DNA from: a virus
Lineage: Duplodnaviria > Heunggongvirae > Uroviricota > Caudoviricetes
Virus record (IMG/VR): IMGVR_UViG_2703718818_000014
Location: 1-11,010 of that record
Length of the DNA: 11,010 nucleotides
Reading direction: 5' to 3' (one strand)
Position numbers and translations under genes: made by a program. The stretch's first letter is position 1, and each line of letters opens with the position of its first letter. Below, piece after piece: positions 1-11,010 of the stretch. The notes under the pieces were generated by a model. That model was not told where the DNA came from and searched no databases. It was given only the letters and a program-made list of their open reading frames with translations.

Positions 1-1242
1 ATGGCGAGAAAAACACCCCCATTAACCACAGTACAGATCAAAGCAGCCAGACCAGCAGAAAAGGAATACACCCTACAGGACGGCGGAGGGCTTTTTCTCC
101 TGATCAAACCGTCCGGATCAAAACTCTGGAGATTTTCCTACTACCGACCATCGGACAAAAAAAGAATATTGCTGAGTTTTGGATCGCTTGATGATGTTTC
201 CCTGGCTGATGCCAGAAAACGCCGTAGCGAGTACAGGGCGTTAATTCGTGCCGGAACTGACCCGCAGGACCACGAGAGGCAAAAAAGAGAGACAGAGGCC
301 CGAAGACAAGGGAACACGTTCGAAAATGTGGCAACAGCATGGTACCAGGTGAAAATCAGCCAGAATCTGGCCCCCAATACGATTAAAGACATCTGGCGAT
401 CGCTGGAAAAATATGTATTCCCGTTCATCGGCAACACGCCAATAGACACCCTGACCGCTCGCAGGTTCGTTGAGGTGCTTACCCCCATCAAGGAACGTGG
501 CAACCTGGAAACACTCAAACGGGTTTTACAGCGCGTTAATGAGGTAATGGATTACGCCGCCAACAGTGGGCTGATTGATGCCAATCCGGCTATGAATGTG
601 CGTAAGGCGTTCCCCTCCCCTGTAAAAAAACATATGCCAACAATCCGCCCCGAACAGCTGCCGGAGCTTATGCAGGCTTTATCAGTATCGGCAACAGAAC
701 GGCAGACCAGATTACTGATTGAATGGCAGTTACTGACCGTAACCCGTCCCGTTGAAGCATCGTCGGCACGCTGGGAAGAAATCGACATGGAAGCGCAACG
801 CTGGACCATACCCGCCGGACGCATGAAGATGCGCCGCGACCACGTTATCCCGCTTTGTGACCAGGCTATGGCAGTGCTGGAGGCTATGAAACCAATCAGC
901 CACCACCGCGATTATGTTTTCCCGAGTCTGAAAGACCCACAGCAGCCGATGAACAGCCAGACCGCTAACGCAGCATTACGACGCATGGGATTCGCTGGCG
1001 TGCTGGTGTCTCATGGATTACGCGCCATATTCAGCACAGCAGCGAACGAAGAAGGCTTTGAGCCGGACGTAATAGAGGCCGCACTTGCCCACGTCGACAC
1101 CAACGAAGTCAGACGGGCATACAACCGGAGCAACTACATAGAAAAACGCATCGTGCTTATGCGCTGGTGGGGCGAATTTGTCGAGGCTGCGGCGACGGGC
1201 GTAACCCTCGCCAGTGGTAAAAGGGGTATCCGAGCCGTTTAG
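1..1242 (+). CDS. int: Tyrosine site-specific integrase, P4 / CP4-57 IntA-like (413 aa)
   Basis: ATG at position 1, 413 codons. N-terminal ...GGGLFLLIKPSGSKLWRFSYY... typical of P4-family integrase arm-binding domains; C-terminal HGLRAIFST and RRAYNRSNY match the catalytic H-x-x-R and tyrosine nucleophile regions. Length equals the CP4-57 IntA class. Confidence 0.93.
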   Translation: MARKTPPLTTVQIKAARPAEKEYTLQDGGGLFLLIKPSGSKLWRFSYYRPSDKKRILLSFGSLDDVSLADARKRRSEYRALIRAGTDPQDHERQKRETEARRQGNTFENVATAWYQVKISQNLAPNTIKDIWRSLEKYVFPFIGNTPIDTLTARRFVEVLTPIKERGNLETLKRVLQRVNEVMDYAANSGLIDANPAMNVRKAFPSPVKKHMPTIRPEQLPELMQALSVSATERQTRLLIEWQLLTVTRPVEASSARWEEIDMEAQRWTIPAGRMKMRRDHVIPLCDQAMAVLEAMKPISHHRDYVFPSLKDPQQPMNSQTANAALRRMGFAGVLVSHGLRAIFSTAANEEGFEPDVIEAALAHVDTNEVRRAYNRSNYIEKRIVLMRWWGEFVEAAATGVTLASGKRGIRAV

Positions 1243-1264
1243 CTGTACAGAAAACCAGTAAAAA

Positions 1265-1297
1265 CTACGAAAACCATTTAAAACCGTCGTATAATTG
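1265..1297 (+). promoter_or_regulatory. Candidate sigma70 promoter (perfect -10 TATAAT at 1290-1295, weak -35)
   Basis: TATAAT hexamer at 1290-1295 in the int/alpA intergenic region; no convincing TTGACA-like -35 at 17 bp spacing, so weak. Confidence 0.25.
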
Positions 1298-1319
1298 CAT
1301 CACATTTAACGACGAGGCC

Positions 1320-1571
1320 TTGAAAAATGAAACTGTTAAGATGCAAACAAATTTCAGATGCAATTGCGACGGGCTGCAACTGGCCCTGATGGTTCAGCAT
1401 GAATTTTGGTCAACCTACGATCCGGAGGACAGAACGACGGCCCCATCAAAAAAACAGGTAGTAGATTTCCTGGTATCCCGTGGGGCTTCCAGAAATCTGG
1501 CTGTAAGTATTGATAAGGTTGTACGTCCGGCATCCATGAAGACCGGAGGCAGGCCAAAAAAATGGCGGTAA
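1320..1571 (+). CDS. Hypothetical small protein (83 aa from TTG 1320; first ATG at 1341)
   Basis: ORF ends 8 nt before a strong intrinsic terminator; no clear Shine-Dalgarno and no recognisable family, so the call is tentative. Confidence 0.3.
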   Translation: MKNETVKMQTNFRCNCDGLQLALMVQHEFWSTYDPEDRTTAPSKKQVVDFLVSRGASRNLAVSIDKVVRPASMKTGGRPKKWR

Positions 1572-1581
1572 CAATCCTGAA

Positions 1582-1605
1582 AGCGGCAGAAATGCCGCTT
1601 TTTTT
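1582..1605 (+). terminator. Rho-independent terminator
   Basis: Stem AGCGGCA / TGCCGCT (7 bp), loop GAAA, followed by a run of 7 T. Confidence 0.7.
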
Positions 1606-1633
1606 ATAAATCCCTTTCAAATCATCAATATAA

Positions 1634-1720
1634 AAAACGGTGTATACCGTTTAAAAACGGTGAGTACTGTTTTTCCCTGCATCCGATGATTTACCGTATT
1701 TCTCACCGGAATACACCGGA
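1634..1720. promoter_or_regulatory. Repeat-rich putative operator/promoter region upstream of alpA
   Basis: Direct repeat AAAAACGGTG at 1634-1643 and 1654-1663; palindrome ACGGTgtatACCGT at 1637-1650; direct repeat CACCGGA at 1704-1710 and 1714-1720; all within 100 bp upstream of the alpA start. Confidence 0.3.
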
Positions 1721-1738
1721 TTAATGAGGTAAATCACG

Positions 1739-1945
1739 ATGGAAGCAATCAAAAAAGTCATCTTTCGCCAGGAAGTAAAAAAACTTATCCACATCAAGGC
1801 AGACAGCACGCTTCAAAGCATGATCAACGCCGGAGAATTTCCGCAGGGTTTTCGCGTTGGTTTACGCCGTCGCGGATGGTATGAGGAAGACGTAATCGCA
1901 TGGATGAAAGAACGTGAGCAGGAAGCACGCGGAACGGCTGCGTAA
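1739..1945 (+). CDS. alpA: AlpA / Vis-family prophage transcriptional regulator (excisionase-like HTH), 68 aa
   Basis: ATG with GAGG Shine-Dalgarno 10 nt upstream. The segment MINAGEFPQGFRVGLRRRGWYEEDVIAWM matches the AlpA family signature (AGxFP ... G.R...W...I..W). Confidence 0.85.
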   Translation: MEAIKKVIFRQEVKKLIHIKADSTLQSMINAGEFPQGFRVGLRRRGWYEEDVIAWMKEREQEARGTAA

Positions 1946-2095
1946 TGGTGTGAGGCATAACACGATGAACATAACAAAAAGCGCCCCGTTGCCGGAACGC
2001 CCTTGTGAACAATTAACCTGCTGCGCCTTATGTGTATGTGATCCCAAACATAAGCACGGGAATGATAGCCGCTATCAGGCTGGTGGGCAATGTAA

Positions 2096-2275
2096 TTACC
2101 CTTTGGGTTCTATGCCGCGTTGCTGTAATTCTTTGCGGATTATTCGCTTTATCCAGGCAGCAAGAGAATCATCGCCGTCATGTTGTTGTGCCTTTTCCAT
2201 CTTTTCCCGTAAGTCAGGATCTAAACGGAACTGGAACGGAGGATTACCACGCCTTTCGTTTTTGTGTGTTGACAC
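2096..2275 (-). CDS. Small ribbon-helix-helix (Arc/MetJ-like) DNA-binding protein, paralogue 1 (59 aa, GTG start)
   Basis: My minus-strand translation: MSTHKNERRGNPPFQFRLDPDLREKMEKAQQHDGDDSLAAWIKRIIRKELQQRGIEPKG. Beta-strand / helix A / helix B pattern typical of RHH repressors. Below the length cutoff of the supplied ORF track. Paralogous to the ORF at 2780..2971, sharing start context and the C-terminal RGIEPKG. Confidence 0.45.
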   Translation of the reverse strand: MSTHKNERRGNPPFQFRLDPDLREKMEKAQQHDGDDSLAAWIKRIIRKELQQRGIEPKG

Positions 2276-2343
2276 GTTAATTACACCCCATGTAATGTAT
2301 TTATGTGTAGTGACACATTACAGACAATCAACACAAAAAGCAA

Positions 2344-2374
2344 AGCCCGCTGGAGCTATGAACACCAACGGGCT
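2344..2374. other. Conserved stem-loop A (minus-strand intrinsic-terminator-like; alternatively part of a small regulatory RNA)
   Basis: AGCCCG-c-TGG / CCA-a-CGGGCT stem. On the minus strand the stem is followed by TTTGCTTTTTGTG. Flanks AAAAAGCAAAGCCC ... GGGCTTCTAACC are shared with stem-loop B at 3043-3075, with compensatory changes inside the stem. Confidence 0.4.
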
Positions 2375-2494
2375 TCTAACCAAACCATTAATTGAGGTAA
2401 CGATTATGGCTATAAAAGAGCATAGCTTACTCTTTATACACACACAAACGCCCCGGAAACGGAATAATCCGTTTCATAGTTCGGTTTTGTGCAC

Positions 2495-2722
2495 TCATCC
2501 TGGCGGTCGGTTTTTGCCGGATTTAAGCCGCCGTGGGTATTTATCGACAAAATCTTCAAGGGCAAATTTTTCTGGTGGCACTAAGCGCGGCGCTGGTGGT
2601 GGTATTTTTGTTCTGGTTAGTTCTTCCTCAAGTCTGGCGCAGGCTTCTGACTGCCTTTGCCGGATGATTTCATCATCTTGCGTTTGCGTGTCTTGTATTG
2701 GTGATAGTGTGTTGTTGGTCAT
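2495..2722 (-). CDS. Hypothetical protein (75 aa)
   Basis: ATG start with AGGG 9 nt upstream; hydrophilic non-repetitive sequence; lies downstream of RHH paralogue 2 on the same strand and upstream of the minus-strand terminator-like stem-loop A. No family recognised. Confidence 0.35.
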   Translation of the reverse strand: MTNNTLSPIQDTQTQDDEIIRQRQSEACARLEEELTRTKIPPPAPRLVPPEKFALEDFVDKYPRRLKSGKNRPPG

Positions 2723-2779
2723 GATACTGCCCTGTAAAGCAATGCGCCGGAGTACCTCACACCACGGCGCTGATAGTTT

Positions 2780-2971
2780 TTATCCTTTGGGTTCTATACC
2801 GCGCCGCTTTAGTTCAGTGCGCCCCAACTCTTTAAGCCAGTTGGCTAGGCTTATGCCGTCGCTCTGTGCTTCTTTATCGAATTGCTCTTTTAGCTCTGGA
2901 GAAATTCGCATTCTGAATTGTGGGGATTGCCCGTCCCCTTTAGGGCTTTTATCGCGTTTGATTGTTGACAA
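2780..2971 (-). CDS. Small ribbon-helix-helix (Arc/MetJ-like) DNA-binding protein, paralogue 2 (63 aa from TTG 2971; alternative ATG at 2911 gives 43 aa)
   Basis: Translation ...STIKRDKSPKGDGQSPQFRMRISPELKEQFDKEAQSDGISLANWLKELGRTELKRRGIEPKG, collinear with paralogue 1 including N-terminal (M)ST.K. AGGTGA lies 4 nt upstream of the TTG. Confidence 0.45.
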   Translation of the reverse strand: MSTIKRDKSPKGDGQSPQFRMRISPELKEQFDKEAQSDGISLANWLKELGRTELKRRGIEPKG

Positions 2972-2972
2972 G

Positions 2973-3013
2973 TGGTCACCTATTGAATTAGCCTTTCTAT
3001 TGTTAGGTGACCA
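2973..3013. promoter_or_regulatory. 10-bp inverted repeat, candidate operator (TGGTCACCTA ... TAGGTGACCA)
   Basis: Perfect 10-bp inverted repeat at 2973-2982 and 3004-3013 between the RHH paralogue 2 start and stem-loop B. The analogous position in module A has a different inverted repeat (TGTAATGT 2291-2298 / ACATTACA 2315-2322). Confidence 0.35.
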
Positions 3014-3042
3014 CCTTAACACAAGAGCACTTAAAAAAGCAA

Positions 3043-3075
3043 AGCCCCGCAAGTGTCATTACCACTCGCAGGGCT
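3043..3075. other. Conserved stem-loop B (paralogue of stem-loop A)
   Basis: AGCCC-c-GCAAGTG / CACTCGC-a-GGGCT. Same flanking sequence as stem-loop A; on the minus strand followed by TTTGCTTTTTT. Confidence 0.4.
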
Positions 3076-3105
3076 TCTAACCAACAACGTAAACTAGGAG
3101 CCGTT

Positions 3106-3663
3106 ATGGTTGCTGTAAATCATATACCACACCTTGTACACACACAAACGGCCTTTGTGTGGCGTTTTCTGGCCCTGAATATCGGAGAAAAAAACCAGTT
3201 GATCGCCAGTGTCGAAAATAGCTATGATTCCCGCGCACCTCATAAAACGGGTGCCGGGATTGGCGTCCTGGGCAAAACTGAAGCGCATAACACGCGCCCC
3301 GCGTGTTTTTTTGTGCCGCATAGTCACACCTTATCAATGGTGGGCTGTACGGGGGCGGAGCAATCCGCGCCGGTTTCTTCAGTGTCCGGTTACGCCAACC
3401 CTGTACAGTCCGCCACCAGCGAAATTGGCGTTTCCGGTGGCGGTTATCTTAACCACACTGAGGAGGCTGCCAACATGGCTACTATCCCTACCCTTGTACA
3501 TTCTCAAACCGCCTTTCTCTGGCGCTTTATCATCTTTGGCGCGTCAGAACATCAAATCATCCACGTAACCGCCTGGACGGAACGCGAAGCGCGTAACCGT
3601 TGCCCGTCAGGTTGTGTTGCTGTATTTGCCGCTCGTATTCGTCAGGGGTCACATCATGCGTAA
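3106..3663 (+). CDS. Tandem small-protein paralogue units B1 and B2 in one open frame (possible Icd-like proteins); B2 may initiate independently at 3475
   Basis: ATG 3106 with AGGAG 5 nt upstream. An internal ATG at 3475 has GAGGAGG 9 nt upstream and encodes MATIPTLVHSQTAFLWRFIIFGASEHQIIHVTAWTEREARNRCPSGCVAVFAARIRQG. B1 begins MVAVNHIPHLVHTQTAFVWRF..., and the frame stays open from 3106 to 3663 across an internal terminator-like hairpin. Family assignment is from memory of the motif only. Confidence 0.4.
   Translation: MVAVNHIPHLVHTQTAFVWRFLALNIGEKNQLIASVENSYDSRAPHKTGAGIGVLGKTEAHNTRPACFFVPHSHTLSMVGCTGAEQSAPVSSVSGYANPVQSATSEIGVSGGGYLNHTEEAANMATIPTLVHSQTAFLWRFIIFGASEHQIIHVTAWTEREARNRCPSGCVAVFAARIRQGSHHA
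3289..3312 (+). terminator. Intrinsic terminator / attenuator inside the B1-B2 leader
   Basis: Stem AACACGCG / CGCGTGTT with a short loop, followed by a T run (GTTTTTTTG). Confidence 0.5.
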
Positions 3664-3949
3664 AAACCGCTTGCAAAAAATTATCACGGGGCTGTATGCT
3701 TCCCCCGTCGCCCACATGGCGACCGGGTTTGACAGCCTGAATAAATTGGCGGACAGCCGCCCATATCCGATAAGCGGTTTTTTTGTGTCCGTAAACCTAC
3801 CCATACCCGCATTATGGCGGGGCGTAACGGGGGAGCCTTTGCGCTCGCTGGTTTCCCAATTTGCCAGTCTGTCAACCCTGTTACGTCTCGCCACCATGTT
3901 TGACAGCGTAGTAGCGAGACTCCTTAACATTAAATTGGGAGCCTTTCAC

Positions 3950-4123
3950 ATGGCTGTATCCGCACGCCCTTACTTTGTCTGGCGCTTTATGCAGTGCCAC
4001 CACAGCAACATTGATGTATTCACCGTTACCGCAGCCACTGAACGCGAAGCCCGCGCCCAGCTGCCGCACGCACATCTGATTCTTGTCGCCCGTATTCGTC
4101 AGGGGAAAACCTATGCACAATAA
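3950..4123 (+). CDS. Small-protein paralogue unit B3 (57 aa; possible Icd-like); frame is open upstream to ATG 3656
   Basis: ATG 3950 with GGGAG 8 nt upstream; MAVSARPYFVWRFMQCHHSNIDVFTVTAATEREARAQLPHAHLILVARIRQGKTYAQ shares F.WRF, TEREAR and ARIRQG with unit B2. The upstream in-frame extension (3656-3949) is homologous to the B1-B2 leader at nucleotide level but in a different reading frame, which argues it is non-coding. Confidence 0.45.
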   Translation: MAVSARPYFVWRFMQCHHSNIDVFTVTAATEREARAQLPHAHLILVARIRQGKTYAQ

Positions 4124-4373
4124 AACCACACCGGACGCAGCAGCCGCCGCGCTCACTACGCTGATGCATGCGCTGATTGATATTTCTGTTATTGCTGACA
4201 GGGCGCATAAGCACGCCACCAGTGAAACAGAATATGCTGGGGCTTTCGTTCCTCATTCGCTGGCGGTTATGCAACTTAGTGCGGATATGGCGCTGAATGA
4301 GGCCAAAGCCATCCTGATTGCTGATTGTGAAAATGGGGGGGGGTTATGCGTGATGATCGTTTTAATTCCCTGA
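4113..4373 (+). CDS. Hypothetical small protein (86 aa)
   Basis: First ATG of the frame, overlapping the stop of unit B3; first gene of a tightly packed run of small ORFs leading into the primase gene. Contains a G9 homopolymer near its 3' end. Confidence 0.4.
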   Translation: MHNKTTPDAAAAALTTLMHALIDISVIADRAHKHATSETEYAGAFVPHSLAVMQLSADMALNEAKAILIADCENGGGLCVMIVLIP

Positions 4374-4567
4374 AACAGGAATTTTCCGGCGTTCCTGATG
4401 ATGCGGTTGATGCGCTTTCGTTAATATCTGAAATTATGCGGGTGGCTTTTTTCTTTCTTTGCACTGATGAGCACAGAGATACAGGGCTAAATATTCTTGA
4501 TATTGCCGCTAACTATGCCGATTTCGTGACAGAAGCTGTTTTAAGAAAAACAACGGACGGGGATTAA
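4346..4567 (+). CDS. Hypothetical small protein (73 aa)
   Basis: ATG 4346 immediately after the G9 run, which doubles as its Shine-Dalgarno; overlaps the preceding ORF by 28 nt. Confidence 0.45.
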   Translation: MRDDRFNSLKQEFSGVPDDAVDALSLISEIMRVAFFFLCTDEHRDTGLNILDIAANYADFVTEAVLRKTTDGD

Positions 4568-4568
4568 T

Positions 4569-4802
4569 ATGCGTGATATTTATCTTGAAACAATAGACCG
4601 CGCATTTCTTGCACTTTCTCACAGTGAAAACATGCTGGAAATATTGCGCATATGGCTTGAAACACTTGGCGACAATGAACGCGACAAACAAAAATCAAGA
4701 ATTGCCACGGCATTAATAACGCTTCTTGAGCCTGTAATAATGGAACTGCAAGAAATAGATCTATTGCACGACAGATATAAAGAACAGCACACCGGAGAAT
4801 AA
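4569..4802 (+). CDS. Hypothetical small protein (77 aa)
   Basis: ATG 2 nt after the previous stop, preceded by GGACGGGGA; acidic helical-looking sequence. Confidence 0.5.
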   Translation: MRDIYLETIDRAFLALSHSENMLEILRIWLETLGDNERDKQKSRIATALITLLEPVIMELQEIDLLHDRYKEQHTGE

Positions 4803-4807
4803 AAATA

Positions 4808-5107
4808 ATGAAACTTAAATATTCTGGCTTAACTGCCAGTGGCAACACTCACCCTAAATTTACGCGCGGTGATATTTACCGCGACCAGTACGGCGGCACG
4901 GTAATGATTAAGGGCGTGGAAGAACGGCGTGTAACCTACCGCCGTGAAGGTTACGAATATGATTGCGTGATGCCTGTTTATCAGTTCCGGCGTGATTTTT
5001 CTCTGGTACAGACCGCGCCGCATAACGTGCCCACCAGCAACGCCAGGGCACGGGCAAACATCCAGAAGCTGAAAACCATGATTAACGGATTCAGGGGTAA
5101 AAAATGA
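4808..5107 (+). CDS. Hypothetical small protein (99 aa), translationally coupled to the primase gene
   Basis: ATG 4808 with GGAGA upstream; its stop overlaps the primase start in an ATGA arrangement. Resembles from memory small conserved proteins found beside primase genes in P4-like islands (unverified). Confidence 0.5.
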   Translation: MKLKYSGLTASGNTHPKFTRGDIYRDQYGGTVMIKGVEERRVTYRREGYEYDCVMPVYQFRRDFSLVQTAPHNVPTSNARARANIQKLKTMINGFRGKK

Positions 5108-6858
5108 AACTGGCACCGAACGTAAAACAGCAGTCACGCGGCATAAAACACAAAGGAACAGAAGTCATTATTTTTGCGGGTAGTGATGCCTGGGCACACG
5201 CGAAACAATGGCAGGAACATGATGCGCGTATGGCCGGAGATAATGAGCCTCCTGTGTGGCTTGGGGAGCAGCAGTTATCAGAGCTGGATAAGCTGCAAAT
5301 TGTGCCGGAAGGCAGAAAATCCGTGCGCATATTCAGGGCCGGATATCTTGCGCCAGTAATGATAAAGGCGATTGGCCAGAAGCTGGCGGCGGCAGGCGTA
5401 CAGGATGCAAATTTTTACCCTGATGGTATGCACGGTCAGAAGGTGGAGAACTGGCGCGAATATCTGGCCCGTGAGCGCCAGAATCTTTCTGATGGTCTGG
5501 TCATTGAGCTTCCGGTAAAGCAAAAGGCGCAACTTTCGCAGATGGCGGACAGTGAGCGCGCGCAGCTGCTTGCCGATCGCTTTGATGGCGTTTGCGTACA
5601 TCCTGAAAGTGAAATCGTTCACGTATGGCGCGGCGGGGTATGGTGTCCGGTCAGCACAATGGAGCTTAGCCGCGAAATGGTGGCGATCTATTCAGAGCAC
5701 AGGGCCACTTTCAGCAAGCGCGTAATCAATAACGCCGTGGAAGCGTTAAAAGTTATTGCCGAACCAATGGGCGAGCCGTCCGGCGATTTGCTGCCGTTCG
5801 CCAATGGTGCGCTTGACCTGAAAACGGGGGAATTTTCCCCGCACACGCCGGAGAACTGGATCACCACGCACAACGGCATTGAGTACACGCCACCAGCACC
5901 AGGGGAGAACATCCGCGATAACGCGCCAAACTTTCATAAATGGCTTGAGCACGCAGCCGGAAAAGACCCGCGCAAGATGATGCGTATATGTGCCGCGCTG
6001 TACATGATTATGGCGAACCGGTACGACTGGCAGATGTTTATTGAGGCCACCGGAGACGGCGGGAGCGGTAAAAGTACATTCACGCACATAGCCAGCCTTC
6101 TGGCAGGGAAACAGAACACGGTAAGCGCTGAAATGACGTCGCTTGATGATGCTGGTGGACGTGCGCAGGTTGTCGGGAGTCGTCTTATCGTCCTGGCTGA
6201 CCAGCCGAAATATACAGGCGAAGGAACGGGCATCAAGAAAATCACGGGCGGTGACCCCGTGGAAATTAACCCGAAATACGAAAAGCGTTTCACGGCTGTA
6301 ATCAGGGCGGTGGTGCTGGCGACCAACAATAACCCGATGATATTCACCGAACGGGCCGGAGGTGTGGCACGTCGTCGCGTGATTTTCCGTTTCGACAATA
6401 TCGTCAGTGAGGCCGAAAAAGACAGGGAGCTACCGGAAAAGATTGCGGCTGAAATCCCTGTCATTATCCGCCGATTGCTGGCGAACTTTACCGACCCTGA
6501 GAAGGCACGGGCTTTACTACTGGAACAGCGTGACGGTGATGAAGCACTGGCAATAAAGCAACAGACGGATCCGGTTATTGAGTTTTGCCAGTTCCTGAAT
6601 TTTCTGGAGGAAGCACGCGGCCTGATGATGGGCGGCGGTGGCGATTCAGTGAAGTACACGACCAGAAACAGCCTTTACCGCGTCTATCTGGCGTTTATGG
6701 CGTACGCAGGCAGGAGCAAACCGCTAAACGTAAATGACTTTGGCAAGGCTATGAAGCCAGCCGCGAAAGTTTACGGACATGAATATATTACGCGGAAAGT
6801 TAAAGGAGTAACGCAGACTAACGCAATAACAACAGACGATTGCGACGCGTTTTTATAA
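5104..6858 (+). CDS. Replication protein: P4-alpha-family primase/helicase C-terminal-type P-loop NTPase (SF3/D5-like), 584 aa
   Basis: Walker A GDGGSGKST, Walker B-like RLIVLADQP and SF3 motif C VVLATNNNP in the C-terminal half; sits directly upstream of an iteron array. Confidence 0.85.
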   Translation: MKLAPNVKQQSRGIKHKGTEVIIFAGSDAWAHAKQWQEHDARMAGDNEPPVWLGEQQLSELDKLQIVPEGRKSVRIFRAGYLAPVMIKAIGQKLAAAGVQDANFYPDGMHGQKVENWREYLARERQNLSDGLVIELPVKQKAQLSQMADSERAQLLADRFDGVCVHPESEIVHVWRGGVWCPVSTMELSREMVAIYSEHRATFSKRVINNAVEALKVIAEPMGEPSGDLLPFANGALDLKTGEFSPHTPENWITTHNGIEYTPPAPGENIRDNAPNFHKWLEHAAGKDPRKMMRICAALYMIMANRYDWQMFIEATGDGGSGKSTFTHIASLLAGKQNTVSAEMTSLDDAGGRAQVVGSRLIVLADQPKYTGEGTGIKKITGGDPVEINPKYEKRFTAVIRAVVLATNNNPMIFTERAGGVARRRVIFRFDNIVSEAEKDRELPEKIAAEIPVIIRRLLANFTDPEKARALLLEQRDGDEALAIKQQTDPVIEFCQFLNFLEEARGLMMGGGGDSVKYTTRNSLYRVYLAFMAYAGRSKPLNVNDFGKAMKPAAKVYGHEYITRKVKGVTQTNAITTDDCDAFL

Positions 6859-6869
6859 TTTGTTGCAAT

Positions 6870-7100
6870 GGCTGTCTACCCTGTCTACCTGAGTAAAGAA
6901 AAATACATTTAATTCAGTACATTAACTTGGGTAGACAGCCTTTTTTTACTGTCTACCTACTATCTACCCTCTCTACCTGATTTTACCTGAATCAGACAGG
7001 GAGGTAGATACGGGGTAGATAGTGGATAAAAGCACTCTACCCCACTGAAAGCCGCGCCATTACTGGCATGGTGGCCAGTAAGGTAGATAAGGTAGACAAG
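6870..7100. repeat. Iteron array / candidate origin of replication
   Basis: At least 11 copies of the core TCTACC / GGTAGA (mostly as octamers TGTCTACC or GGTAGACA / GGTAGATA) in both orientations: 6873-6880, 6882-6889, 6930-6937, 6950-6957, 6961-6968, 6971-6977, 7003-7010, 7014-7021, 7035-7041, 7082-7089, 7091-7098. Perfect 12-bp inverted repeat GGCTGTCTACCC (6870-6881) / GGGTAGACAGCC (6929-6940) flanks an AT-rich spacer; further inverted repeat TTACTGGC / GCCAGTAA at 7060-7081. Confidence 0.7.
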
Positions 7101-7146
7101 GGGAGGCACAACTCAAAACTTTTTAAACGAGGGGGTAAAAATAAAA

Positions 7147-7404
7147 ATGCGCACATCAGGAAAACTTAATAATCAGAAGAAGCAGCATAACCGCGCCATT
7201 GACCTTACAGAGCACTGGCTGAGAGTGGCGATAAAAATCATCGACCGCAACACGGGGGAAGGATACGCGAAAGCACATCCCGAACTGATAAGCGCATTCA
7301 TGACCACGACGGCGGCAAACTTTGCCACGCTGACAGAACGGGAGATTGCCGAAGCGGAACAGGTAACAACCATCAACGTTAAAACCGGAGAGGTGGAATC
7401 ATGA
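7147..7404 (+). CDS. Hypothetical protein (85 aa), translationally coupled to ssb
   Basis: ATG 7147 with GAGGGGG upstream; its stop overlaps the SSB start (ATGA). Confidence 0.5.
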   Translation: MRTSGKLNNQKKQHNRAIDLTEHWLRVAIKIIDRNTGEGYAKAHPELISAFMTTTAANFATLTEREIAEAEQVTTINVKTGEVES

Positions 7405-7811
7405 CAGCACAGATAGCAGCTTACGGGCGGCTGGTGGACGACCCGCAGGTAAAACAGACCAGCAAGGGCACACCAATGACGCTGGCACGTATGGCGGTAT
7501 CGTTGCCATGTAGTCAGGCGCAGGATGGGCAGGCTACGTTATGGCTATCGGTGATGGCATTTGGTAAGCAGGCCGACTTCCTGGCTAAACATCAAAAAGG
7601 CGACGTTGCCAGCGTATCCGGCACGATGCAGGTCAGCCAGTGGACCGGACAGAACGGGGAAATGCGGCAGGGTTATCAGGTTATTGCAGACAGCGTAATC
7701 AGTGCCCGTGCGGCACGTCCTGGCGGGAACAGACGCAAAACCACAGGCACACAGGGTAATCAGCCACCAGCGGGAGACGATGACCCCTACGGTGATGATA
7801 TTCCGTTCTGA
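7401..7811 (+). CDS. ssb: Single-stranded DNA-binding protein (SSB) homologue, 136 aa
   Basis: Strong Shine-Dalgarno GGAGAGGTGGA; OB-fold-like pattern (GRLVDDPQV ... FGKQADFLAKHQKGDVASVSGTMQVSQWTGQNGEMRQGYQVIADSV); C-terminus DDDPYGDDIPF matches the SSB acidic tail (DDDIPF). Confidence 0.8.
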   Translation: MTAQIAAYGRLVDDPQVKQTSKGTPMTLARMAVSLPCSQAQDGQATLWLSVMAFGKQADFLAKHQKGDVASVSGTMQVSQWTGQNGEMRQGYQVIADSVISARAARPGGNRRKTTGTQGNQPPAGDDDPYGDDIPF

Positions 7812-7819
7812 ACGCACAG

Positions 7820-7841
7820 GCCGGAGAAAATCCGGCTTTTT
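7820..7841 (+). terminator. Rho-independent terminator after ssb
   Basis: GCCGGA gaaaa TCCGGC followed by TTTTT; almost identical to the hairpin at 9731-9753. Confidence 0.75.
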
Positions 7842-7845
7842 GTAT

Positions 7846-7893
7846 CCAAAAAAAGCCCGATAAGTACAGGAGGAAGCTTATCGGGCTTTTGCT
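7846..7893. terminator. Bidirectional terminator-like hairpin
   Basis: 11-bp perfect stem AGCCCGATAAG / CTTATCGGGCT (7853-7863 / 7877-7887) flanked by an A7 run upstream and TTTTGCTT downstream. Confidence 0.65.
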
Positions 7894-7964
7894 TACGAGG
7901 TTAACAGCATGGTGACTACTGTTGCTGTAAATTATTTCATAATTTGCAACGCAACTCAATTTCA

Positions 7965-8025
7965 TTGCACAAAATGCAATCATGATTATAATCACAACTG
8001 GATGAACATCCAGTTATGGTTTTTT
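7965..8025 (+). promoter_or_regulatory. Candidate promoter and leader hairpin of the capsid operon
   Basis: -35 TTGCAC (7965-7970), 16-bp spacer, perfect -10 TATAAT (7987-7992); directly downstream an 8-bp stem AACTGGAT / ATCCAGTT (7996-8015) followed by a T6 run (8020-8025). Confidence 0.3.
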
Positions 8026-8048
8026 AAGTCAAAGAGGAATTTCTGACT

Positions 8049-8255
8049 ATGGCTGAAGAGAAAAAAGGCGGTGTTTCGGTGTACATAAGCCCCGAAATCG
8101 TGGAGGTGCTCAAGCAGCGCCACAAAAAAAACTATGAGGCTGGCGTAGCGGCTGGACTGGATCCGCTGATGACGCCGGAGCCGTCGATAGGTTCACTTGT
8201 GCGCTCTTATTTACTTGCGGCGCTTGGGATGCATAAAAATTATGGGGGTGAATAA
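8049..8255 (+). CDS. Hypothetical protein (68 aa), first gene of the capsid operon
   Basis: ATG 8049 with AGAGGA upstream; its stop overlaps the capsid gene start (TAATG). No family recognised. Confidence 0.5.
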   Translation: MAEEKKGGVSVYISPEIVEVLKQRHKKNYEAGVAAGLDPLMTPEPSIGSLVRSYLLAALGMHKNYGGE

Positions 8256-9310
8256 TGACAGGCAAAGCAACGGCACTTAACACTAACCAGCTTTTCATGT
8301 ACCTGAATCGCGGGGATATTGCGGATTTTAAATTCAGCCCTCTGTTTACTACGCTGTTTTTCCCGAACGTGGCGACATTCAGCACGCAAAACATCATGCT
8401 GGACACCCTGGACATTGAAGAGGTTACGATGTCGGCGTTTTGTTCGCCTATGGTGGGTAGTCAGGTCCAGCGCGATAAAGGGTACGAAACCAGCACGATT
8501 AAACCTGGATACATGAAGCCGAAGCACGAAATCGATCCAACGAAAACCATCATGCGCATGGCCGGAGAAGATCCGGCACAGCTTAACGACCCTACCTATC
8601 GCCGTATGCGCCTGATTACTGGCAATATGCGCCGCCAGGTAAACGCCATAAAAGCGCGCGTGGAATGGCTGGCGGTAAATGCGGTAACGACCGGAAAAAA
8701 CATCATTGAGGGCGAAGGCATAGAACGCTATGAAATCGACTGGAAGATACCGGAAAAAAACATCATAGAGCAGGCCGACGGTAAAAAATGGTCTGAGCAG
8801 GATAAAGACATACACGACCCAATATATGACATTGAACTATACGCAGATCAGGCAGGTTGCCCCGCCAACGTCATGATTATGGGCGTTGATGTATGGCGCA
8901 TGTTACGCAGCTTTAAAAAATTCCGTGAACTGTACGATCTCTCCCGTGGTTCAGAATCCGCCGCAGAGCTGGCATGTAAAAACCTGGGCGAAGTGGTGAG
9001 CTTTAAAGGCTATCTTGGTGATCTGGCCCTTATCGTCTATTCCGGCAAATACACTGACAGCGACGGCACAGAAAAATATTTCCTTGAGCCTGATTTGCTG
9101 GTCCTGGGCAACACCAACAATAAAGGGCTGGTGGCCTATGGTGCGATTATGGAACAGGAAGCGGTAAGAACGGGCGCAACGCAAAACATGTTTTACCCGA
9201 AAAACTGGATTGAAGACGGCGATCCGGCGATTGAGTACGTGCAGACACACAGCGCACCGCAGCCTGTTCCGGCAGATATTCGAAAATTTGTTACCGTCAA
9301 AATTGGTTAA
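8255..9310 (+). CDS. Major capsid protein, phage lambda gpE family (351 aa)
   Basis: Collinear with lambda gpE as I remember it: FKFSPLFTTLFF vs FKFDPLFLRLFF; PGYMKPKHEIDPTKTIMR vs PGYVKPKHEVNPQMTLRR; DPTYRRMRLITGNMR vs DPAYRRRRIIMQNMR; C-terminal YPKNWIEDGDPAIEY vs YPKNWVTTGDPAREF. Length close to gpE (341 aa). Confidence 0.9.
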   Translation: MTGKATALNTNQLFMYLNRGDIADFKFSPLFTTLFFPNVATFSTQNIMLDTLDIEEVTMSAFCSPMVGSQVQRDKGYETSTIKPGYMKPKHEIDPTKTIMRMAGEDPAQLNDPTYRRMRLITGNMRRQVNAIKARVEWLAVNAVTTGKNIIEGEGIERYEIDWKIPEKNIIEQADGKKWSEQDKDIHDPIYDIELYADQAGCPANVMIMGVDVWRMLRSFKKFRELYDLSRGSESAAELACKNLGEVVSFKGYLGDLALIVYSGKYTDSDGTEKYFLEPDLLVLGNTNNKGLVAYGAIMEQEAVRTGATQNMFYPKNWIEDGDPAIEYVQTHSAPQPVPADIRKFVTVKIG

Positions 9311-9321
9311 CGGTGGATTCT

Positions 9322-9657
9322 ATGAACACTCCATACATTGAGTTATTTGCAGGCAGTCAGCAGGTATCAACGACACTGGTACATTTTGCCGCTGATGCTG
9401 GCGTTATTCAGGAATTTACCCCGCTGATGCTGGCGGACAATGGCGAGTTTAAGCCGTGGGATGGTCAGGAATCTGGCAAGGCTGTTTATCTGACCTCGTA
9501 CCCCGTTGACACGTCGACGCAGAAATCAGCACAGTGCTATAAGACGGGGATATTTAATATCGCCGCCGTTAACTGGCCTGAGAGCGTCGACACCGATGCG
9601 AAAAAATGCGCCGCCTTTGCGGGTTCTGGCGTATCCGTTCAGCCGCTGGCGCGATAA
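9322..9657 (+). CDS. Head decoration protein, phage lambda gpD family (about 111 aa; alternative GTG start at 9313)
   Basis: TPLMLADNGEFKPWDG vs lambda gpD TPLMLDTSSRKLVAWDG; YKTGIFNIAAVNWPESVDTDAKKCAAFAGSGVSV vs [35 protein letters not shown]. Sits immediately after the capsid gene. Confidence 0.85.
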   Translation: MNTPYIELFAGSQQVSTTLVHFAADAGVIQEFTPLMLADNGEFKPWDGQESGKAVYLTSYPVDTSTQKSAQCYKTGIFNIAAVNWPESVDTDAKKCAAFAGSGVSVQPLAR

Positions 9658-9730
9658 GCAGGGGGAACGATGGCAGAAAGCCGGGCGATGACGGCGACAT
9701 CGATCGCATACTGAAAACCATCTGAGACAG

Positions 9731-9753
9731 GCCGGAGAAATCCGGCTTTTTTT
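9731..9753 (+). terminator. Rho-independent terminator after the decoration gene
   Basis: GCCGGA gaaa TCCGGC followed by T7; same hairpin as 7820-7841. Confidence 0.75.
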
Positions 9754-9930
9754 ACGGGTCCTTTCCGGCATATGGACCCGTTACGGGGCGGCGACCTCGC
9801 GGTTTTTCGCTATTTATGAGCCTTTTCAGGGGGGTGGTGGTGGTTTTGTTGTTTGCTCTATCTTTATGAATGAAAAGGGAAAGATGCAAACAATACACCA
9901 ACCTGAAGCAGTAATTAAGTTGGTGTATTA
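9754..9930 (+). other. cos site 1: lambda-type cosQ-like/cosN region with a non-lambda cosB
   Basis: CCGTTACG-GGGCGGCGACCT-CGCGGTTTTTCGCTATTTATGA, with the 12-nt cohesive-end sequence at 9786-9797 matching lambda cosN and its right flank. Downstream there are no lambda R-sites; instead G6(TGG)3 at 9826-9840, inverted repeat TTGTTTGC / GCAAACAA, and 11-bp inverted repeat AATACACCAAC (9892-9902) / GTTGGTGTATT (9919-9929) abutting the terS start. Confidence 0.75.
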
Positions 9931-10473
9931 ATGAAATCGCACCTGATGAACAAAAAAAACATGGCGAAAAGCTGCCGTGTAAGTGCGACAGCGTTCGACA
10001 AGTGGGGAGTGACTCCCGTTGAACGTAAAGGCCGTGAGGCGTTTTATGATGTTGCCAGCGTGATAGACAATAGGGTTAACAATGCAATTAGCCAGCTTAC
10101 AAACGACAAAGGCGATATTGATGATGCTGAACTCTTACGAGTCAGGATCAGATTACTGACAGCACAGGCGGAGGCGCAGGAACTTAAAAACGAGCGCGAT
10201 CGCGGTGACGTGATTGATACTGAGTTTTGCCTGTACGCGCTTTCAAAGCTGGCGAGTCAGATTTCATCAATCATGGACAGCCTCCCGCTTAATATGCAAA
10301 GGAGCTTCCCACAGATTCCCCCCGCCATGCTGGACAGGCTTAAAAGGGAAGTGGTTAAAGCCTGTAATGGCAGTGCCAGAGTTGCCGACAACCTCCCACA
10401 GATACTGGCTGATTACTTGAAAGAAACAACCGGAAACGTACCGGAAAAGTTGCTACAGAAGAAAGGCGAGTAA
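9931..10473 (+). CDS. Terminase small subunit, lambda gpNu1 family (180 aa; homologous start may be ATG 9946)
   Basis: C-terminal two-thirds collinear with lambda Nu1: LTAQAEAQELKNERDRGDVIDTEFCLYALSKLASQISSIMDSLPLNMQRSFP vs LTRAQADAQELKNARDSAEVVETAFCTFVLSRIAGEIASILDGLPLSVQRRFP. The N-terminal DNA-binding region is recognisably related but far more divergent. No obvious Shine-Dalgarno at either start. Confidence 0.88.
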   Translation: MKSHLMNKKNMAKSCRVSATAFDKWGVTPVERKGREAFYDVASVIDNRVNNAISQLTNDKGDIDDAELLRVRIRLLTAQAEAQELKNERDRGDVIDTEFCLYALSKLASQISSIMDSLPLNMQRSFPQIPPAMLDRLKREVVKACNGSARVADNLPQILADYLKETTGNVPEKLLQKKGE

Positions 10474-10479
10474 CCGCAG

Positions 10480-10697
10480 CGCAATTATTGAACAAAACTG
10501 AGAAACGACATGAAAGCGTCATAAATCGCCATTTCAGATGATTACCGTGTCGTTTCTTTTTATTGTGTATCTATTTAAAAACAAATAGTTATGTTCGAGA
10601 AGTACCGACATGATTTTTCCAGAAAAATTTTCATAAACAGATAAAAACCGCGAGGTCGCCGCCCCGTAACGGGCCATAATTCCAGGAAGGACCCGAC
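10480..10697 (-). other. cos site 2 (inverted): lambda-type cosQ-like/cosN with lambda-like cosB (R3-, R2-, R1-like elements)
   Basis: Reverse complement of 10653-10664 is GGGCGGCGACCT. The minus strand reads CCCGTTACG-cosN-CGCGGTTTTT...TTTATGAAAATTTTT...TCGGTACTTCTCGAACATAACT...AAAAAGAAACGACACGG...CTGAAATGGCGA...CATGTCGTTTCTCAGTTTTGTTCAATAATTG, collinear with the lambda left end through R3, R2 and R1 up to where the Nu1 ATG would be. There it meets the 3' end of the plus-strand terS. Confidence 0.75.
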
Positions 10698-10728
10698 GAC
10701 ACCAGACTATCAGAACGATGGGGGCACA

Positions 10729-11010
10729 ATGACAGAAGCCGAACTACTGCGATTAATCCGTCGCGTTGCCGGAATCAGCCAGCAGGCTGACGAACAGGCC
10801 ACGCAGCCGGACAGCGTGACCGCCGAAAATTATGCGCGTGTGGTTGCTGAGGTGATGCGCCGTGACGGTATTGAGCTTAACGGCGTGGATATGCGCGACA
10901 TACGGATCCGCGTTCTGGAAATGCTGGCCTACAATCGCCGCGTTGAACTGTATCGGGAGAAAGAAAAAATTACGTACCACTGGAAGAAGCCGGAGCGGTT
11001 ACGGCGATAA
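10729..11010 (+). CDS. Hypothetical protein (93 aa)
   Basis: ATG 10729 with GGGGG upstream; stop is the last codon of the window. Arg-rich C-terminus; no family recognised. Confidence 0.5.
   Translation: MTEAELLRLIRRVAGISQQADEQATQPDSVTAENYARVVAEVMRRDGIELNGVDMRDIRIRVLEMLAYNRRVELYREKEKITYHWKKPERLRR

Follow-up and report, generated by a model that had tools for sequence, protein, structure and literature searches.

A Nu1-family small terminase gene between two inverted cos sites of an Escherichia coli phage satellite that has no large terminase gene

The stretch of DNA analysed here in its whole length of 11,010 nucleotides (IMG/VR record IMGVR_UViG_2703718818_000014, positions 1 to 11,010; hereafter the window) is a complete small integrative element of 11 kb from Escherichia coli, of the type of EcCICFT073, a Gram-negative phage-inducible chromosomal island (PICI). 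The open reading frame (ORF) at 9931-10473 is a real small-terminase (TerS) gene, terS, of a phage satellite without a large terminase (TerL). It sits between two inverted cos sites, cos1 on its left and cos2 (10474-10694, minus strand) directly downstream, the second of which a sequence-only reading of the same DNA had not linked to the gene. Satellite small terminases have precedents. The TerS of Staphylococcus aureus pathogenicity islands (SaPIs) pairs with the TerL of the helper and steers packaging to a site of the island itself (PMC6739421, PMC6092414), a report of 2018 described TerS genes in PICIs of Gram-negative bacteria (PMC6092414), and SatelliteFinder counts 'small terminase' among the five core components by which it defines PICIs, giving the redirection of packaging as its role (PMC10085698). 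The window terS is an instance of this catalogued class, and the field already takes it as its default assumption that packaging is redirected by a satellite TerS. In the searchable literature we found no experimental study of a Nu1-type PICI TerS, nor any mention of the features described below, namely the N15-type identity of the DNA-binding domain (DBD) and cosB, the covariation of DBD and cosB, the allelic C-terminus and the exchange of terS and rpp cassettes.

Results

The terS ORF is intact and its 180-aa product belongs to the family of lambda gpNu1, matching Pfam Phage_Nu1 (PF07471) at 81.1 bits (E=9e-23; curated cutoff 30 bits) and PHROG 57, 'terminase small subunit', at E=1.6e-51. 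By BLASTP it aligns end to end with N15 gp1 (46%, E=4e-53), the best match in the phage collection, and with the TerS of the lambdoid phage PhiR5_1 (PV340545; 40%, E=1e-41), and over the full length, residues 6-166, with lambda Nu1 (62/178 = 35%, E=2e-34). An N-terminal winged helix-turn-helix DBD is indicated both by 60% identity to N15 over residues 1-48 and by a satellite-family profile that reaches the crystallised lambda TerS DBD (6hn7_B, E=0.008, positions 6-84); a single-sequence phmmer search of TerS against Protein Data Bank chains gave nothing meaningful. The predicted order of secondary structure, helix-helix-strand-strand-helix, taken from a low-confidence AlphaFold2 model, is consistent with such a fold. 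Support for the start codon at 9931 comes from N15 gp1, whose N-terminus reads MAVLLNK, and from L008, a diverged satellite copy in which it reads MTQHLLNK (L and P numbers are our labels for related loci and terS alleles). As expected of the family, the gene lies directly to the right of cosN-cosB, with its ATG at +146 from the cohesive end (+191 in lambda, +89 in N15). The other family trait, a downstream large terminase gene that overlaps it, is missing from the window, its identical copies and the inspected relatives, and terS overlaps no A gene, unlike lambda Nu1.

The boundaries of the element are given by its relatives. Three loci (L004, L005 and L007) match the window over its whole length at 99.99% identity; in them the element extends from int as far as the 93-aa ORF, beyond which lie host genes, namely an autotransporter gene (yejO in L014), narP and the ccm operon. 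In complete genomes host genes flank the relatives on both sides, with a split tqsA at L001, cspD/yljB and clpS around the UM146 relative, and roxA and phoQ around L020. The window has the composition of an int-alpA-primase island without terL, portal, tail or lysis genes: no large terminase gene was found in it, in the identical copies or in any of ~12 inspected copies, and no portal, tail or lysis gene in the window or the inspected relatives. The sequence-only reading had already reported the window to be free of a large terminase gene, which is borne out and holds for the whole element; a terL of the same element just beyond the window was looked for, and host genes were found instead. The exact TerS protein is present in 289 blocks of the assembly collection, and by blastn 793 of 5426 complete E. 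coli genomes (~15%), including O157:H7, O145 and O55 strains, hold a homologue of the terS 3' half. All 60 rows sampled across the ranking of these 793 genomes are annotated 'terminase small subunit' only, and in none of them does a terL overlap the terS match.

TerS consists of an N15-type winged helix-turn-helix (residues ~1-48), a helical core (~73-140) and a satellite-type C-terminal domain (141-180) that ends in the tail ETTGNVPEKLLQKKGE (Table 1). The core, with ~51% identity over residues 73-140, is the sole part that is well conserved with respect to lambda Nu1, and the last ~40 residues, which in lambda Nu1 are the proposed gpA-binding part (PMC9026076; PMC4669245), are the least lambda-like. 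We hence do not recover the architecture proposed earlier, a hybrid with a highly lambda-like C-terminal two-thirds, including the TerL-interacting end, and a much more divergent N-terminus: the protein shares 37% of residues 1-48 with lambda and 26% of residues 141-166, the N-terminal third has diverged from lambda no more than the remaining protein as a whole, and the C-terminus, which has a unique tail, is an allele specific to the satellite. The N-terminal string quoted in that reading is correct, counting from M6, but the DBD that it belongs to is not a novel satellite invention. The recognition-helix region reads SATAFDKWGV in the window and SVQAFDKWGV in N15, and the same DBD subtype is present in Pseudomonas D3/F10-like phages. 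Judged by these alignments the DBD is the known N15/D3 subtype of the Nu1 family, and the packaging specificity of N15-type TerS has already been studied (PMC4669245). The natural holder of a non-lambda DBD together with a lambda-like C-terminus is N15 gp1, and the window TerS is, on amino-acid identity, a mosaic of an N15-type DBD, a core nearest to PhiR5_1 and a C-terminal end of its own.

Table 1 Identity of the window TerS to four other small terminases, by segment.
TerS residues	Lambda	N15	PhiR5_1	L014 satellite
1-48	37%	60%	29%	31%
49-72	12%	29%	12%	16%
73-96	58%	45%	70%	58%
97-140	47%	45%	61%	68%
141-166	26%	34%	42%	57%
167-180 (tail)	none	7%	none	85%

The two cos sites share the cosQ-cosN-I2 part, of which cos2 is an inverted copy (arms 9755-9826 and 10624-10695, 72 nt, 82% complementary; Table 2). 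Phage similarity of cos1 stops at ~9831: it ends at the I2 segment, and a search for a phage that carries the cos1 cosB found none. The layout of this cosB is forward-inverted-forward, as in R3-R2-R1 of lambda. The lambda R core TGTCGTTTCY does not occur in it, and in the window is found only at 10501-10510 and 10548-10557, in agreement with the earlier claim that terS adjoins a cos whose cosB is without lambda R-sites. Instead, MAFFT aligns the first block of cos1 with R3 of N15, with GTTGTT invariant across the N15 cos and two other satellites; mutation of this core in N15 R3 cuts yield ~100-fold (PMC4669245). In cos1 the core is preceded by (GGT)n. A window-wide count of the N15 R3 pattern gave 7 matches against 4.6 expected, which is not significant alone. 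The cosB of cos2 is of phage type, and as far as R2 cos2 shares 82% identity with the PhiR5_1 cos.

The question of which cos pairs with TerS was addressed by tabulating ten satellite loci, in all of which (10/10) the type of the cos1 cosB equals the type of the TerS DBD. The loci with an N15-type DBD (the window, L001, L020, L019, L021, L022, L015 and L008) have GGTGGTGGT(T/G)TTGTT(G/A)TT in the cos1 cosB, and those with a 21/PhiR5_1-type DBD (L014 and L023) have 21-type CATGTCGGTACTTCT sites. The cosB of cos2 varies independently of DBD type, being of lambda/21 type in the window and L001, of 'CAGATCC' type in L020, L014 and L023, and of a third type in L019, L021 and L022, and cos2 is absent from the helper-embedded L015 and L008, which keep cos1 and terS. 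The match of DBD and cosB1 across the ten loci, with cos2 independent or absent, indicates that cos1 and terS are the cognate pair and lends comparative support to a TerS that would recognise the satellite's own packaging site rather than that of the helper. We rejected cos2 as the TerS target, since its type is independent of the DBD and it is missing from the helper-embedded copies. The elements with a 21/PhiR5_1-type DBD, L014 (6430-6673, 7259-7480) and L023, also have a different cosN, GGGGTACGTGTA, and in these variants the central cosN bases differ between cos1 and cos2 of one element.

To find the helper, we searched exhaustively with HMMER for the last 84 TerS residues among 1.84 billion representatives, and obtained no phage or prophage TerS with the satellite C-terminus above 47% identity. 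The tail is covered by 3 representatives only, a 194-aa full-length protein that is the L014-type satellite TerS and 2 fragments with a satellite-type tail, and all other matches end at about query residue 70, at <=47% identity. Among 104 homologues not shorter than 160 aa, nearly every full-length E. coli variant shows 94-100% identity over residues 1-48, with 83-85% for the two that diverge most, and the last 40 residues fall into discrete identity classes of ~95, 70, 50 and 20%. Synonymous divergence between the window and L015 is 0.11 in the 5' quarter of the gene and 0.9-1.0 in the 3' half, a jump that points to recombination. In the C-terminal half the ratio of non-synonymous to synonymous divergence (dN/dS) comes to 0.22-0.26 in comparison with L015 and to 0.11-0.12 in comparison with L014, which indicates purifying selection on the domain, and the Nu1-family end motif (L/I)P..L..Y(L/I) is kept. 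Rpp proteins are without this C-terminal domain and 30-40 aa shorter (PMC9026076). In phages the TerL N-termini are mosaic as well, the TerL of phage 4 and PhiR5_1 being 95% identical overall and 50% in the first 60 aa. The C-terminal allele of satellite copies embedded in lambda-like prophages, LDENIPLMLSDYL, is nearer to lambda LDELIPGLLSEYI than the window allele ADNLPQILADYL is, and the allele inside lambda-gpA prophages has the lambda-like pattern LDE.IP..LS.Y; the window allele is nearer to PhiR5_1 AEKLPEMLDEYL. These very few independent cases suggest that C-terminal alleles may be matched to TerL types.

Copies embedded in a helper are directly identified satellite-helper pairs (L015/L016, L018 and L008-L011), an arrangement described as 'helper-embedded satellite' in bioRxiv 10.1101/2022.07.18.500453. 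Two E. coli genomes have a satellite with a 180-aa TerS of the same family (WP_000835282) inside the portal gene of a lambda-like prophage. In the L016 prophage the cosB is of lambda type, the TerL does not differ from lambda gpA, and the TerS (nohD) is essentially lambda Nu1; L018 shows the same embedding and annotation. Relatives from Enterobacter and Citrobacter (L008-L011; 59% identity) occupy the capsid E gene of lambdoid prophages. The lambda-embedded satellite and its helper have cosN in common but not cosB or the type of TerS DBD, a pattern that fits a model in which the satellite TerS takes the place of the helper TerS.

Comparison with EcCICFT073 (L013) shows where in the island terS has been placed. 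The late region of that island consists of capsid, decoration, a 137-aa gene, cos1, a 144-aa protein, inverted cos2 and a 93-aa ORF, and the 144-aa protein is RppA by its length and its position beside cos1 (PMC6739421, PMC9026076). The window terS likewise lies between the cos1 and inverted cos2 of an EcCICFT073-type island, in the exact rppA slot, and at the chromosomal site of EcCICFT073 itself (roxA/phoQ) strain Z1323HEC0423 has the same backbone with terS in place of rppA. Outside the slot the terS and rppA islands show 94-99% homology, which breaks ~41 bp inside each cosN and leaves a non-homologous segment of 792 bp in one island and 664 bp in the other; the exchanged block is 9827-10617 in the window (cosB1-terS-cosB2), compared with L013:2601-3264 and L020:12639-13430. 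Breaks of homology at the cosN arms indicate that cosB1-gene-cosB2 acts as an exchangeable cassette bounded by inverted cos arms. The two genes that occupy the slot are not alike. TerS has no sequence similarity to RppA (BLASTP E=1.2), and with 180 aa and a full Nu1 C-terminal half it falls outside the Rpp group, which comprises relatives of RppA/B/C of ~135-154 aa without a TerL-binding C-terminus. A relationship between the TerS and Rpp DBDs was also rejected, there being no similarity and the helix region of RppA (VNRTTIRAW) being lambda-like, not N15-like.

The remaining features of the element are listed in Table 2. Relative to EcCICFT073, L001 and L002, the window and all 99.99%-identical copies carry a ~350-bp deletion at ~9667-9675, which takes most of the conserved 137-aa gene that normally lies between the decoration gene and cos1 and that in relatives is annotated as a helix-turn-helix regulator with an AlpA-like Pfam match. 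The island has its own gpE-like capsid and gpD-like decoration genes, without portal, protease or scaffold, and according to the literature EcCICFT073 does not need its capsid gene in order to be transferred. The long ORFs listed over the stretch ~1914-4300 probably do not encode proteins. Some terS alleles are decayed or rearranged (P0086, P0082, P0083, P0091 and L002:13482-14023; the frameshifted ones include UM146), and one 232-aa in-frame fusion joins TerS ~1-128 to the 93-aa ORF, with the C-terminal domain and cos2 deleted. At L019 (E. coli CREC-629, cspD/clpS site) the whole satellite is tandemly repeated at one attachment site, with six terS 3'-half matches in the record and no fewer than two full copies arranged head to tail.

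Table 2 Features of the window and their positions.
Feature	Position	Strand	Remarks
P4-type integrase	1-1242
AlpA-like regulator	1739-1945		small
isrK	3235-3311		Rfam match
C4 antisense RNA	3333-3420 and 3810-3898		Rfam match
c4-a1b1 target	3694-3743		Rfam match
DUF4222 protein	4808-5107
D5-type primase	5104-6858
Single-stranded DNA-binding protein (SSB)	7401-7811
Lambda gpE-like major capsid protein	8255-9310
gpD-like decoration protein	9313-9657
Terminator-like hairpin and T-run	9729-9748	+	between the gpD-like gene and cos1; conserved in relatives
cos1 cosQ-like block GGGTCCTTTCCGG	9756-9768	+	also before cosN in lambda-like prophages and EcCICFT073
cos1 cohesive end (cosN) GGGCGGCGACCT	9786-9797	+	identical to lambda
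cos1 I2-like segment	9798-9819	+
cos1 cosB	9832-9930	+	satellite-specific
R3-like block of cos1 cosB GGTGGTGGTTTTGTTGTTTGC	9836-9856	+	N15-like GTTGTT core
Inverted partial copy of the GGTGGTGGTTTTGTTGTTTGC block	9886-9903		in cos1 cosB
Direct copy of the GGTGGTGGTTTTGTTGTTTGC block	9919-9929		abuts the terS start codon
terS	9931-10473	+	180 aa, Nu1-family small terminase
cos2 cosB	10474-10630	-	phage-type; positions equivalent to lambda
cos2 R1' CATGTCGTTTCTCAG	10498-10513	-
cos2 inverted R2' AAAGAAACGACACGG	10545-10559	-
cos2 I1-like segment	10571-10593	-
cos2 R3' TCATGTCGGTACTTCTCG	10596-10613	-	21/phage-4 type; almost identical to R3 of CFT073 prophage 4
cos2 I2-like segment	10631-10652	-
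cos2 cohesive end GGGCGGCGACCT	10653-10664	-
cos2 cosQ-like block	10682-10694	-
93-aa ORF	10729-11010	+	conserved (PHROG 1561); last island gene; also 3' of rppA in EcCICFT073

Discussion

We consider it moderately probable that the satellite's own TerS, cognate with the cosB of cos1, recruits the TerL of a helper phage. The N15-type winged helix would bind the GTTGTT-containing R3-like site or sites ~50-70 bp to the right of the lambda-type cosN, the Nu1-type core would oligomerise, and the C-terminal domain would engage the N-terminus of a lambdoid helper TerL, which would then nick the satellite cosN and package satellite concatemers rightwards from cos1. The island would thereby carry a packaging address that the helper TerS could not read, and the satellite TerS would compete with the helper TerS for TerL. 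Lambda- and 21-specific terminases package N15-specific DNA at <1e-3 (PMC4669245), which would insulate the address of the island from the helper TerS. Such a replacement of TerS is supported by the full-length homology to Nu1 and by the lambda/N15 layout cosQ-cosN-cosB-terS, and further by the lack of terL in the element and its relatives, the covariation of DBD and cosB1, the upkeep of the C-terminal domain and its discrete alleles, and the presence of either rppA or terS in one backbone at the EcCICFT073 site; that TerS binds cos1 DNA and touches TerL, and which phage serves as helper, are predictions from comparison. The sequence-only reading had compared the gene in its logic to SaPI TerS rather than to an Rpp adaptor, and with no similarity to RppA this remains the most economical reading, although the hybrid architecture attached to it does not stand.

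Several observations weigh against the recruitment of a helper TerL by this TerS. The R3-like block lies ~9 bp further from cosN than in N15, with its core at bp 63-68, whereas the core of an N15-type R3 is expected at bp ~48-60 from the cohesive end, and R3-cosN spacing is critical in lambda (PMC4669245). No phage TerS has the satellite C-terminal domain (best <=47%, tail unique), and in the one direct helper pair the helper Nu1 is only ~20-40% identical to the satellite TerS in the C-terminal region, so that TerL binding is argued from homology at the level of the family. The AlphaFold2 model of TerS, built on a 19-sequence alignment, is poor (predicted local distance difference test 48.7, predicted template modelling score 0.26). 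No sigma-70 promoter is predicted and a terminator lies upstream of cos1, the 137-aa gene 5' of cos1 is deleted in the window, and frameshifted and fused copies of terS exist. Finally, in tests of 2018, inducing the resident prophages did not lead to transfer of the TerS-encoding islands of IHE3034 and 18098 (PMC6092414).

The first alternative assigns to TerS the role of an Rpp-like adaptor, which would join mixed oligomers with the helper TerS through its core and supply cos1 specificity, while the C-terminus of the helper TerS would bring TerL. Rpp proteins work in this way, EcCICFT073 transfer needs the helper TerS (PMC6739421, PMC6092414), and terS occupies the very slot of rppA. The core stretch RLT.AQA.AQELKN.R (73-96) is moreover the most conserved between satellite and phage TerS (58-70%), and the satellite C-terminus matches no known helper TerS. 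However, an adaptor needs no C-terminal domain, since Rpp proteins do without one (PMC9026076), and here the domain is kept under purifying selection together with its end motif, in a protein that has no sequence similarity to RppA. We judge an adaptor role rather unlikely. It is a good deal less probable still that TerS serves mainly in interference, titrating the helper TerL or poisoning helper TerS oligomers, with the satellite packaged through cos2 by the unmodified helper terminase. The complete phage-type cosB of cos2 (R3-I1-R2-R1), with its likeness to the PhiR5_1 cos, would suit this role, and both EcCICFT073 cos sites are functional (PMC6092414), but it is the cosB of cos1 and not that of cos2 that covaries with the DBD, cos2 is missing from embedded copies that have terS and cos1, and in EcCICFT073 deletion of cos1 lowered transfer whereas deletion of cos2 raised it (PMC6092414); interference and self-packaging are, in addition, not mutually exclusive. 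That terS is a non-functional remnant of a packaging module from a decayed lambdoid prophage, or an ordinary small-terminase gene with its terL just outside the window, is highly improbable and already conflicts with the boundaries of the element and with the selection data, for although frameshifted (UM146) and truncated or fused copies (P0082, P0083, P0086) occur, the element is complete, bounded by host genes and without terL, the 3'-half homologue is found in 793/5426 complete E. coli genomes, dN/dS lies far under 1, nearly every full-length E. coli variant conserves 94-100% of the N-terminal 48 aa (two at 83-85%), and DBD and cosB covary.

Replacement of the helper TerS at cos1 would place the window between several known systems. 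The SaPI TerS_S of S. aureus is likewise a satellite-encoded TerS homologue in an island without terL, but it is of the pac/headful type and from an unrelated TerS family, whereas the window TerS, known from sequence, is a Nu1-family protein of the cos type behind a lambda-type cosN. The Rpp proteins (RppA/B/C) of EcCICFT073-type PICIs share backbone and slot with the window terS, and both provide a winged-helix DBD for a PICI-specific cosB; Rpp proteins, however, are 135-154 aa long, have no TerL-binding C-terminus and form a heterodimer with the helper TerS (PMC6739421, PMC9026076), in contrast to the full-length Nu1 homologue of the window. Among phages, N15 gp1 is the closest TerS. N15 has a simple cosB (R3 only) and the related 'Monarch' a tripartite one, and a GTTGTT-core R3-like site to the right of cosN is also present in the window. 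The C-terminal half of N15 gp1 is nearly identical to that of lambda and is followed by terL, whereas the window has its own C-terminal allele and no terL, and its cohesive end has the lambda sequence, not that of N15. Lambda gpNu1 is of the same family and length and shares the cos-terS layout and much of the core, but it has another DBD subtype and a dissimilar gpA-binding end, and the satellite protein has a 14-aa extra tail. The TerS of PhiR5_1, of 21 type, is the nearest phage TerS to the satellite core and C-terminus (70%; 61%; 42%), and its DBD type recurs in the satellite variants L014 and L023; it differs from the window in its 21-type DBD, in having no tail and in being followed by terL.

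A wider model, which we offer tentatively and regard as doubtful, though somewhat less so than the adaptor role, is that the inverted copies of cosQ-cosN-I2 bracket a swappable cassette of packaging specificity (cosB1 - terS or rpp - cosB2), and that a single recombination at the conserved cosN arms would switch an island between TerS replacement and Rpp adaptation. TerS would then be a two-key module, in which an orthogonal N15-type DBD/cosB pair, unreadable by lambda- and 21-type terminases, is combined with interchangeable C-termini matched to TerL N-termini, and cos2 would be a helper-type fallback or a decoy.

The worth of this system lies in its details and in the experimental handle it offers, rather than in a new principle. 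Given that a homologue of the terS 3' half is found in ~15% of complete E. coli genomes, the gene is relevant to the movement of islands. If replacement of the helper TerS is true, enterobacterial cos satellites use two solutions at one locus, TerS replacement as in the window and an Rpp adaptor as in EcCICFT073. Their shuffled DBDs, cosB sites and TerL-binding ends form a natural library, which could be used to map how lambda-family small terminases choose their DNA and their motor.

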